A stretch of DNA of 23,976 bases from Thiotrichales bacterium. Its GTDB lineage: Bacteria > Pseudomonadota > Gammaproteobacteria > Beggiatoales > Beggiatoaceae. Where the stretch lies: contig JADGEH010000073.1 in assembly GCA_016744475.1 (NCBI GenBank), positions 1 through 23,976 of the forward strand, read 5' to 3'. The notes beneath the pieces are model-generated. The model ran no database searches. It saw only the letters and a list, made by a program, of their open reading frames with translations, and was not told the DNA's origin. Each line of letters begins with the position of its first letter. Position 1 is the stretch's first letter. Below, in pieces: positions 6,646 through 7,548 of this stretch. A program made the position numbers and the translations under genes.

Positions 6646-6718
6646 TAGACTTGTCCAGGTTTAAGCGACGTAACGAAAAGCAGCGGGATTAAGCGGGTTT
6701 TTTCGTTCATTCGTGGTG
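6646..6718 (-). mobile_element. MITE family 2, truncated and inverted copy of about 73 bp (tagacttgtccaggtttaagcgacgtaacgaaaagcagcgggattaagcgg...). It starts 10 bp after the ycjF stop.
   Basis: Matches the reverse complement of the right end of the full copy at 13244-13404. Confidence 0.6.
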
Positions 6719-6864
6719 AGAAGCATCCCCCAAAGAATGATATAGCTAAATGACATCGTTTATAGGCTTGTGATATATCGAAACCCAAGACTGCCAGTCC
6801 TTGAAGGACTGGCAGTCTTAACAACTGATGTCATTTTTCTATATATGACAAAGCACTAAGCTTA

Positions 6865-7024
6865 AGAGCCTATACGAAGATGGGGAATCGAAGCGAAAAT
6901 TCGCCATTTTGAGGCAGGTTTTTCGGTTTTTTAAGGCGAATAGCGGGCGTGTGTTGATAAAAAGCGGAAAACCTGGCCAAAAGGGCGGATTTGCAGCCGA
7001 TGATCCCGTTTTCGTATAGGCTCT
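6865..7024 (+). mobile_element. MITE family 1, full copy of about 160 bp with terminal inverted repeats agagcctatacgaa / ttcgtataggctct. There is no coding capacity.
   Basis: The terminal inverted repeats are read directly. Near-identical full copies lie at 7387-7548 (inverted) and 23695-23844, with partial copies at 3871 and 8163. Confidence 0.8.
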
Positions 7025-7047
7025 AAGTGCTAAAAAAATGCTAGCCC

Positions 7048-7320
7048 ACACTGGATAAACTTATCCCCCCTTCTCTGCACCAAAGATAAAGTGTGGGATA
7101 ACTCCGTGGATAAGTCTGTAGATAACTATGTGGATAAGTTGTGGGATAACCGTGGTAAAACTTAGCGGCTCATCTGCTCACTCAAGATAGGCTTTTTAAC
7201 AGTGAACATCTTTGCGTCTTAAACAACAGATATATACATAATATACATACATGTGTGATTTCTTAATGATTGATTTATAAATAGTAAACAAGCTTATCCC
7301 ACAACTTATCCCCTCTAATA
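7048..7320 (+). promoter_or_regulatory. Origin-like region. A divergent box pair sits at 7052-7069 (TGGATAAAC / TTATCCCCC). A 12-bp-phased direct array of 6-7 DnaA-box-like units spans 7080-7163; its GATAA cores fall at 7085, 7097, 7109, 7121, 7133 and 7145, and it includes an exact TGTGGATAA at 7129-7137 and TGTGGGATAA at 7092-7101 and 7140-7149. An AT-rich tract at 7200-7290 has tandem atatacata repeats. Inverted boxes TTATCCCACA and TTATCCCCT sit at 7295-7315.
   Basis: E. coli DnaA box consensus TTATCCACA / TGTGGATAA; the exact 12-bp periodicity was counted by hand. The AT-rich tract adjoins the array. The whole 362-bp segment lies between two inverted copies of MITE family 1. Confidence 0.55.
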
Positions 7321-7386
7321 AACATAACAATAATTTTATATATAAGATTTAACTAACACCTTATTGAAGCTTTATACTGCGCTTTG

Positions 7387-7548
7387 AGAGCCTATACAAA
7401 AATGGGATAATCGGCTGCAAACCCGCCCTTTTGGTCAGATTTTCCGCTTTTTCTCAACAAATAGCCTGCTATTCGCCTTCAAAAAACCGAAAAATCTGCC
7501 TCAAAATGGCGGATTTTCGCTTCGATTCCCCATCTTCGTATAGGCTCT
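7387..7548 (-). mobile_element. MITE family 1, full copy in inverted orientation.
   Basis: Its ends, agagcctatacaaaaatgggataatcggctgcaaacccgcc... and ...cgcttcgattccccatcttcgtataggctct, are the reverse complement of the 6865-7024 copy. Confidence 0.8.

Follow-up and report, generated by a model that had tools for sequence, protein, structure and literature searches.

Two related families of short, palindromic MITE-like elements in DNA from an uncultured marine bone-biofilm gammaproteobacterium

The 23,976-nt stretch of DNA analysed here (‘the window’), from the marine bone-biofilm metagenome D2, carries among its genes ycjF-like, mreD, ArsP-type permease, thioredoxin-like and FecR-domain genes, between which lie short repeats of two kinds, termed F1 and F2. 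Four proteins of the window have entries in the collection, and every one of these forms a singleton cluster. The study that produced the metagenome described five Beggiatoales MAGs from bone biofilm (PMC7883544), and the source of the window is probably one of them. The repeats, together with one context feature that lies outside them, are as follows.

3871..3918, plus strand: truncated F1, consisting of the first 48 nt of the left arm
6646..6723, minus strand: inverted half copy of F2, equivalent to the F2 right arm (88%) and cut at the hairpin apex
6865..7024, plus strand: full F1 copy of 160 nt, the element itself running GAGCC...GGCTC, with flanks TAA/TAA; 3' of the ycjF-like gene and to the left of the DnaA-box cluster
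7025..7386, no strand: DnaA-box cluster (context, outside the elements), between the inverted F1 pair
7387..7548, minus strand: full, inverted F1 copy of 162 nt, with flanks TAA/TCA (one mismatch); in the mreD upstream region, on the right side of the DnaA-box cluster
8163..8177, minus strand: solo F1 terminal repeat (14/15 nt match), just 3' of the mreD stop codon
13244..13404, plus strand: full F2 copy of 161 nt, with flanks TA...TA followed by T6; the ArsP-type permease gene lies on one side and the thioredoxin-like gene on the other
23685..23844, plus strand: full F1 copy of 160 nt, with flanks TAA/TAA; approximately 410 nt upstream of a 779-aa FecR-domain gene (minus strand)

Every copy described by the initial annotation is thus found where that annotation had placed it: for F1, three full elements, a 48-nt fragment and a solo end, and for F2, one full and one half element. 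The 15-nt end of F1 occurs eight times in the window when up to two mismatches are allowed (against 0.02 expected), the 20-nt end of F2 occurs three times (against 0), and a profile search of the window returned no further diverged copies of either family. The description of these repeats as ‘saturating’ intergenic space was too strong, in that pieces of them occupy four to five of the 13 intergenic gaps and approximately 16% of intergenic bases. Truncation and nesting occur at these repeats: the truncated F1 breaks off where the low-GC ycjX/ycjF segment begins in the GC profile, the half copy of F2 starts 9 nt past the ycjF-like stop codon, and one F1 copy outside the window is nested in an F2, inserted at a TAA within the F2 terminal repeat.

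Both elements are approximately 160 bp long (160–162) and form an imperfect palindrome along their full length, bounded by terminal inverted repeats that are longer than first described (approximately 20–25 nt). The termini of F1 display 90% complementarity over 20 nt and the arms of F2 71% over 78 nt; folding of the full-length hairpins gave z-scores of -8.7 and -11.6, the former for the F1 copy at 6865..7024 (RNA fold, -81.7 kcal/mol). Translation of all frames disclosed no transposase ORF inside F1 or F2. The earlier characterization of these repeats as MITE-like and non-autonomous therefore holds, with terminal inverted repeats present and a transposase absent.

Insertion of F1 duplicates a 3-bp T-N-A target, mostly TAA and once TGA. 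The 3-bp flanks are identical on both sides in seven of nine copies (six TAA and one TGA, the latter having changed on both sides together), while the remaining two pairs each contain one mismatch. Models in which one or two base pairs are duplicated were rejected, as they require asymmetric ends and an invariant extra A; the 3-bp model is preferred because it leaves F1 with symmetric GAGCC...GGCTC ends. The earlier suggestion of TTA or TAAG duplications at the borders was close. For F2, the flanks are TA...TA in both known full copies, where the TA is inseparable from a possible TA belonging to the terminal repeat itself.

Copies of the elements were also recovered beyond this locus. Among other scaffolds of the same sample, one (L002) carries three full F1 copies, another (L003) carries one full, one internally deleted and one truncated F1, and a third (L004) carries one F1, while F1-derived peptides are found on four more contigs, known through those peptides only (P0005, P0006, P0008 and P0009). 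One full F2 lies on L003, copies of F2 outside the window having been seen only in loci retrieved for F1; a six-frame search for F2 peptides returned no match. The F1 copy at 7387..7548 recurs in a second, independent assembly of the sample (L001), whose contig stops 53 nt into the F2 copy, a break of the kind typically induced by repeats. An origin of the repeats in local segmental duplication or in an artefact of assembly, for which the clustering of several copies in one 24-kb contig is the sole argument, has an essentially negligible probability, given that at least eight other contigs carry copies in unrelated contexts and that two independent assemblies are concordant. F1 and F2 are therefore multi-copy, dispersed over many contigs and young, F1 copies sharing a mean identity of approximately 95%; as the initial annotation had proposed, this is a transposable family rather than one confined to its locus. 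Searches for the exact ends of F1 and F2 in JGI metagenomes, and for a conserved-core pattern in viral contigs, found no match, and literature searches with end and core motif strings returned unrelated primers only.

F1 inserts into AT-rich intergenic DNA and gene interiors alike. The intergenic location originally assigned to the family describes most of the copies seen, but at least three real genes, encoding a ParE toxin, a PKD-repeat protein and a SnoaL-like protein, contain F1 in frame. A 159-nt F1 and its 3-bp duplication add exactly 54 codons, and in these genes the 161-nt variant of F1 is translated as an insert of 54 aa. When 159 nt and one copy of the duplication were excised in silico, the ParE frame was open and the PKD repeat returned to its normal length, and Pfam matches became contiguous and higher scoring, at 45.5 versus 38.2 bits for ParE and 78.7 versus 61.7 bits for the SnoaL-like protein. 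The statement that no element encodes a protein is hence correct for a transposase but not for the translated insert, the F1 peptide itself having no match in Pfam. No sister strain with a true empty site was found, and mobility of F1 and F2 we infer from their anatomy and from these excisions in silico only.

The inverted F1 pair at 6865..7548 brackets a segment in which DnaA boxes occur in 12-nt phase at 7093–7150 (TRF likewise reports a 12-nt period), with two more at 7293–7316. The boxes at 7105, 7117 and 7129 have zero to one mismatch, and three variants of TTATCCCAC are present, where 0.19 would be expected in the window as a whole. An AT-rich stretch at approximately 7225–7290 lies beside the boxes, as judged by eye, such that a DnaA-box cluster and an AT-rich region occur together. 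No switch in GC skew is seen at 7025..7386, the cumulative skew rising on both sides in a 24-kb contig that is too short to decide the matter, and the segment contains no GATC. Genes linked to replication origins include dnaA, dnaN, gidA and mioC, and none of the four is found among the annotated genes of the window.

This arrangement could be read as a composite unit, mobile as a whole and bearing a sequence that is origin-like or titrates DnaA, a reading encouraged by the near-identity of the two inverted F1 copies, by the 362-bp box cluster that they enclose and by the absence of those origin-linked genes from the annotation. It is, however, extremely unlikely: the outer flanks of the pair are TAA and TTA (read on the same strand), with no common duplication; the intervening segment is absent from the other loci examined, where profile searches match F1 copies only; and F1 occurs roughly once per 8–10 kb, mainly in non-coding DNA, so that finding two within a gap of 1 kb is unsurprising. 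The earlier observation of an inverted pair flanking an origin-like segment stands for the presence and orientation of both copies, which do not appear to form a composite unit, as there is no shared outer duplication. Because the left copy possesses its own perfect TAA/TAA duplication, the two F1 copies were probably inserted independently at the edges of a long non-coding region. Inversion between them was considered as a source of the TAA/TCA mismatch on the right and was rejected, as the flanks are no better after the swap.

A 3-bp T-N-A (or TWA) duplication combined with ends that begin GAG is typical of IS5-family elements of the IS1031 type and of the related PIF/Harbinger (‘Tourist’) MITEs, and the corresponding features of F1 suggest a possible affinity with that group. 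A DDE transposase encoded elsewhere would then bind the terminal repeats and move F1 and F2 in trans; the TA flanks of F2, and the CTAG flanks of a third family described below, might fit other target rules of IS5-like or IS630-like enzymes. In the approximately 68 kb of DNA examined from the sample, neither a parent IS nor a transposase bounded by GAGCCTATACGAAGATGGGG-type ends was found, and none of the loci examined contains an IS5/PIF-type DDE transposase gene. Transposase fragments in that DNA are of the IS66 and ISAs1 types only, which generate 8–10-bp duplications.

F1 and F2 might instead be REPIN-like doublets moved by a RAYT (an IS200-like tyrosine, or HUH, transposase) rather than by a DDE enzyme, given their long hairpins, their mainly extragenic location and their relatives in Pseudomonas, where REPINs are common. 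That alternative is highly unlikely, since REP and REPIN elements are not known to display the direct 3-bp target duplication found here, which co-varies on both sides (TGA/TGA), and since the elements insert within genes and show continuous homology over approximately 160 nt rather than two short REPs and a spacer. Furthermore, no RAYT gene was found in any locus examined. We therefore consider F1 and F2 to be related families of non-autonomous DNA transposons (MITEs) of an uncultured marine bone-biofilm gammaproteobacterium, with a probability of about 0.8. Such elements are of an ordinary kind, but the families are undescribed, and they have distant relatives with the same hairpin in other bacteria.

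The initial annotation had also proposed the copies as likely sources of promoters or terminators, a role that the sequences do not support: promoter-like sites are not enriched (11 found versus 13.6 expected), with a single hybrid promoter site and a single case of a hairpin followed by T6. The extensive synteny scrambling that it ascribed to the copies likewise finds no support here. If transcribed, the stem of approximately 65 pairs would form a long double-stranded RNA, which, by analogy with ERIC and Correia elements, could alter mRNA stability or read-through.

The relatives just mentioned make up a third family, F3, which has CTAG flanks and was found on a Pseudomonas plasmid and on three other metagenome contigs (compost, vent and JGI). 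F1, F2 and F3 are homologous to one another over their whole length. The original division into ‘two families’ is thus right in that F1 and F2 both exist, and incomplete in that they share full-length homology. All three occur in gammaproteobacterial DNA, that is, on the Pseudomonas plasmid and on contigs whose gene neighbourhoods are of gammaproteobacterial type. The open frames were judged not to be conserved as protein, as the homologous core lies in different frames in F1 and F3.

What the three families do appear to share is a hairpin kept by compensatory changes, with a consistent G·U bias on one strand. In the alignment, 94.3% of cells are paired, versus 81.9% in shuffles and 42–53% in slid registers, and double changes occur at 29 of 63 pairs, a number matched by none of 500 shuffles. 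Both strands were folded for 11 elements, and in every one the same strand folds better; the consensus folds at -66.7 kcal/mol with 63 pairs on that strand, against -27.0 kcal/mol with 39 pairs on the opposite one. Within families, 27 switches of a pair between Watson-Crick and G·T were counted, compared with six in which the alternative was A·C; because the list of pairs came from the favoured strand, the G·T counts are somewhat inflated. A plain cut-and-paste model accounts neither for the G·U bias of one strand nor for the compensatory changes.

These observations, together with the persistence of whole-length homology despite the distant sources of F3, would be accommodated if the hairpin were itself functional and strand-specific, as a structured RNA or a single-stranded DNA intermediate merely spread by its terminal repeats, so that an RNA or ssDNA family would be only incidentally mobile. 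We regard this as possible but unlikely. The orientation of the elements to neighbouring genes is mixed (approximately half sense and half antisense), an internal promoter is not evident, and Rfam returned no match beyond sub-threshold hits to microRNA-precursor hairpins, which were rejected as generic matches to long hairpins. In addition, the families share ancestry, so that their strand bias is not fully independent, and processes at the level of DNA can keep the arms of a palindrome matched. A broader proposal, equally tentative, is that F1, F2 and F3 constitute an undescribed superfamily of approximately 160 nt, whose hairpin, kept by selection, might function as an RNA or as a single-stranded intermediate in transposition or regulation, while the terminal repeats diverged to follow different transposases. 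Were that so, it would amount to a mobile structured-RNA family that is absent from Rfam and can be read as a 54-aa protein insert. If conservation of the hairpin reflects selection on RNA, the elements would represent a new mobile structured RNA; otherwise, they are new MITE families of a routine sort. Of most interest as a lead is the recurrence of this hairpin, bounded by terminal repeats that have diverged, on a Pseudomonas plasmid and in bacteria from compost and hydrothermal vents.

For those working with such genomes, F1 and F2, the MITE families favoured above, have practical consequences as well. The repeats explain why this genome is assembled as short contigs, whose ends lie within or next to a copy, and gene callers turn the elements into spurious ORFs or into 54-aa inserts in real proteins, so that these elements should be masked in Beggiatoales-like MAGs.

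F1 resembles the Tourist-type MITEs and their IS5 (IS1031-group) and PIF-Harbinger relatives in being short, non-autonomous and bounded by terminal inverted repeats, and it adds a bacterial example of a Tourist-like 3-bp T-N-A duplication. It differs from them in being palindromic over its whole length rather than at its termini only, while F2 and F3 depart further, having TA or CTAG flanks and no 3-bp duplication.

Heptamer repeats of the TAACTGA type are reported in Beggiatoaceae; they are absent from the four loci scanned, and TRF found no such tandem array in the window, a result of no help to taxonomy. MITEs are abundant in that family, and those of Candidatus Thiomargarita nelsonii, which have been likened to Correia elements, are hairpin-forming and abundant, interrupt genes, have no known parent IS and are suspected of fragmenting the assembly (PMC4853749). 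The MITE in hupL has a 10-bp direct repeat and a 19-bp inverted repeat, and that in a dsrA intron ends in TATAG (PMC4853749). F1 and F2 are similar in kind, and differ from the hupL and dsrA elements in these described features. The Correia elements (NEMIS) of Neisseria are likewise MITEs of approximately 100–155 bp that form long hairpins, with terminal repeats of approximately 26 bp; they are distinguished from F1 by a TA duplication and different terminal repeats, and reports credit them with providing promoters and RNase III sites, whereas promoter-like sites are not enriched in F1 and F2.

The ERIC/IRU (127 bp) and YPAL/RU-2 (167–168 bp) repeats of Enterobacterales are imperfect whole-length palindromes with stable stem-loops, multi-copy and mostly intergenic, sometimes intragenic with open frames, and found across genera (PMC2759123). 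F1 and F2 share with them a similar size, a whole-length imperfect palindrome and multiple copies, but ERIC and YPAL duplicate TA rather than the 3 bp duplicated by F1, the published RU-2 sequence bears no resemblance by eye to F1 or F2, and a blastn search of 5,426 complete E. coli genomes returned no match to F2.

Finally, the Rickettsia palindromic elements (RPEs) are approximately 150 bp long and lie in frame within coding genes, to which they add a conserved peptide (PMC10969869). F1 is like them in adding 54 aa to the ParE toxin, PKD-repeat and SnoaL-like proteins; it belongs to another host lineage, has no known sequence relationship to them and is mostly intergenic, and, in contrast to RPEs, it displays a clear target duplication and terminal repeats. 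F1 would thus represent RPE-like, in-frame ‘selfish DNA’ in genes outside Rickettsia.

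All copies of the roughly 160-bp MITE families F1 and F2 that had been listed in the initial annotation were recovered in place by a repeat finder and by alignments:

F1 and F2 copies in the window
6865-7024, + strand: full F1 copy (repeat finder, alignment)
7387-7548, - strand: full F1 copy (repeat finder, alignment)
23685-23844, + strand: full F1 copy (repeat finder, alignment)
3871-3918: F1 fragment of 48 nt (repeat finder, alignment)
8163-8177: solo F1 end, 14 of 15 nt matching
13244-13404: full F2 copy (repeat finder, alignment)
6646-6723: inverted F2 half copy, corresponding to the F2 right arm (88% match)

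The 15-nt end of F1 occurs 8 times in the window at no more than 2 mismatches (0.02 expected) and the 20-nt end of F2 three times (0 expected), and a search of the window with a profile built from all relatives found no extra diverged copies. The window is a whole NCBI contig of 23,976 bp. Its sample was also assembled independently, and that assembly reproduces 7228-13296 and breaks off 53 nt into the F2 copy, where a repeat would be expected to break contigs. The earlier statement that the elements are ‘saturating’ intergenic space was too strong: by our tally, MITE sequence occupies 4-5 of 13 gaps, about 16% of intergenic bases and 3.3% of the window.

The possibility that copies are confined to this locus was ruled out by the presence of F1 and F2 on other contigs of the same bone-biofilm sample (ERZ28566616 / SAMN14087006, sample D2 of PMC7883544), which were reached by translating the open frames of F1 and searching protein collections for the resulting peptides. 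One such contig (L002, 20 kb) carries three full F1 copies; a second (L003, 22 kb) carries one full, one internally deleted (89 nt) and one truncated F1 together with one full F2; a third (L004) carries one F1 within an ISAs1-like transposase fragment; and four more are evidenced by peptides alone (predicted proteins P0005, P0006, P0008 and P0009). The density is approximately one piece per 8-10 kb, not counting the copy through which each locus was reached. Neither F1 nor F2 was matched in JGI metagenomes by exact-end scans, and those window proteins that are present in the collection form only singleton clusters; the two families therefore look lineage-specific. Five Beggiatoales MAGs were reported from the bone-biofilm study (PMC7883544), and an abundance of MITEs had already been described in Beggiatoaceae (PMC4853749); this contig probably comes from the order Beggiatoales.

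Both elements are imperfect palindromes from end to end, beyond their termini, with fold energies of -81.7 kcal/mol (z -8.7) for F1 and -77.8 kcal/mol (z -11.6) for F2. The first six full F1 copies to be aligned share a mean identity of 95%, with the first 36 nt invariant, which suggests recent amplification. When the element ends are set as the symmetric GAGCC...GGCTC, the 3-base flanks are identical in 7 of 9 two-ended F1 copies (six TAA/TAA, one TGA/TGA) and differ by one base in each of the other two. These flanks are a direct target duplication rather than an extension of the inverted repeat, because the reverse complement of TAA differs from TAA itself and the change to TGA occurs on both sides together. 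Both full copies of F2 have TA...TA flanks, a number (n = 2) at which duplication is indistinguishable from a TA borne by the repeat. In a nested insertion on L003 (listed with 12424-12584 and 20636-20770), a truncated F1 lies exactly at a TAA within the terminal repeat of an F2 remnant (...GGCTC TAA GCCTGGGCAAGTCTA); fragments of an IS66-family transposase are found nearby, at 18118-19461.

The same flanks bear on the inverted F1 pair (6865-7024 and 7387-7548), which might have been a composite unit. Its outer flanks differ (TAA versus TTA), leaving no common outer duplication, and the left copy has a perfect duplication of its own; the two copies thus look like separate insertions. The intervening segment (7025-7386), described earlier as ‘origin-like’, does contain a DnaA-box cluster, with four boxes in 12-nt phase at 7105-7150; it also holds three TTATCCCAC variants, where the whole window would be expected to have 0.19, and is AT-rich at about 7225-7290. 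There is no GC-skew switch, dnaA, dnaN or gidA within the 24-kb window, and no GATC at the segment, which we regard as a candidate origin or DnaA-titration site.

The proposal that the MITEs supply promoters fared poorly, as promoter-like sites are not enriched in 3400-8400 (11 versus 13.6 expected). A hybrid site, TTGAGA-16-GATAAT (TG-GATAAT; 7384-7411, + strand), is made of flank plus F1 end and reads into the right-hand F1 hairpin, toward mreD; most F1 copies have a -10-like GATAAT within their right end, and a T6 run follows the F2 hairpin. As a possible promoter and terminator, the hybrid site and the F2 hairpin-T6 are leads, not evidence. The ycjX/ycjF-like pair (DUF463 plus DUF697, 3919-6645) has a GC content of 0.35-0.37, versus 0.42-0.50 elsewhere in the window; on the left, the F1 fragment stops exactly at the start of this block, and on the right the F2 half copy starts 9 nt beyond the block's final stop codon. 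Judged from composition and position, the block may have been horizontally acquired or rearranged, with MITE fragments at its junctions. Two directly abutting tRNA genes were called by ARAGORN at 3241-3389 (- strand), tRNA-Lys(CTT) and a 76-nt ‘tRNA-Ser(AGA)’; the latter identity looks doubtful, because 76 nt seems too short for the long variable arm of a serine tRNA.

A 161-nt variant of F1 lies in frame within three real genes:

Genes containing F1 in frame
L002, 10001-10420: ParE toxin (P0007)
L003, 10001-12442: 813-aa PKD-repeat protein (P0010)
SnoaL-like protein (P0009)

The insertion amounts to exactly 54 codons, comprising the 159-nt element proper and the 3-bp duplication. Deletion in silico of F1 and one duplication copy leaves an open frame in the ParE and PKD genes, with junctions (…HIRPEPLSSNLAGLYKLRVGDYR…; …FSLSANSGAAPLTV…) that fit the expectation for each family. 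Without the 54-aa insert, the ParE protein gives a contiguous Pfam match of 45.5 bits (profile positions 3-89), versus a partial one of 38.2, and the SnoaL-like protein a contiguous match of 78.7 versus 61.7 bits. That frame is interrupted by a stop in both intergenic 161-nt copies and free of stops in the in-gene copies, a contrast biased by the discovery of the latter through ORF calls, from which nothing is concluded as to selection. RPEs, ERIC and QMITE1 provide known examples of MITEs fused in frame (PMC10969869, PMC2759123). On L002, two RelB/ParE-type toxin-antitoxin modules (9124-10420) are inserted within an rnf operon, between an FMN_bind gene (rnfG-like, 8375-8998) and an Rnf-Nqr gene (rnfE-like, 10665-11369); the F1-bearing ParE gene is the second of the two.

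The description of F1 and F2 as separate families did not hold: nhmmer aligns the core of one with that of the other at E 1e-7 to 3e-9, their nominal orientations being opposite, and on this sequence homology they are not independent. The F2 core also matches an unannotated intergenic site on the Pseudomonas sp. MPC6 plasmid pMPC6-328K (E 1e-7), the sole copy found among 72,556 plasmids; used as the query of a six-frame peptide search, that element yielded three more members of this third family, F3:

F3 members
L005 2955-3121 (NZ_CP034782.1 140983-141149): 167-bp hairpin element with 22-nt terminal repeats CTAGGAGGCTGTCCGAGAACAG, homologous to F1/F2
Compost-metagenome contig: member upstream of algU
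Hydrothermal-vent contig: member at the cpoB 5' end
JGI contig: member

Aligned as 13 sequences, F1, F2 and F3 show homology along their full length, terminal repeats included (GAGCCTATACGAAGAT, GAGGCTGTCCGAGAAT, TAGACTTATCCAGGCTT). On the hydrothermal-vent contig the gene caller ran cpoB through the F3 copy (L006 6917-7114), and on the JGI contig a predicted 190-aa ORF with no family assigned was similarly extended (L008 749-1321), so that the annotated proteins gain MITE-derived N- or C-terminal segments.

The interest of these elements lies in the conservation of the hairpin across genera and in its strand bias. Compensatory double changes are found in 29 of the 63 pairs of the consensus hairpin, and 94.3% of cells pair, versus 81.9% after column shuffling (the observed value was reached in 0 of 500 shuffles) and 42-53% when the register is slid. 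In 11 of 11 elements folded on both strands, one and the same strand gives the better fold (consensus -66.7 versus -27.0 kcal/mol), and within families Watson-Crick pairs interchange with G·T in 27 cases and with A·C in 6 (p = 3e-4), comparisons to be read in light of the shared ancestry of the three families and of a pair list derived on the favoured strand. Co-transcription with host mRNAs is not obviously the cause, because the orientation of the elements relative to neighbouring genes is mixed; the strand bias is the main feature left unexplained.

By structural definition F1 and F2 are MITEs, given their small size, terminal repeats, target duplication, dispersal and lack of a transposase of their own. 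A 3-bp T-N-A duplication with GAG ends is a trait of IS5/IS1031 and PIF-Harbinger/Tourist elements, and the same combination in F1 suggests that an IS5-type DDE transposase may act on it in trans. Identity with ERIC was rejected, as a search of 5,426 E. coli genomes with F2 gave no match, as was a REPIN assignment, since F1 and F2 behave differently; the published YPAL/RU-2 sequence looks, by eye, unrelated to either (PMC2759123). In the way they work, the two resemble ERIC, Correia and RPE elements, and they are new elements of a kind already known.
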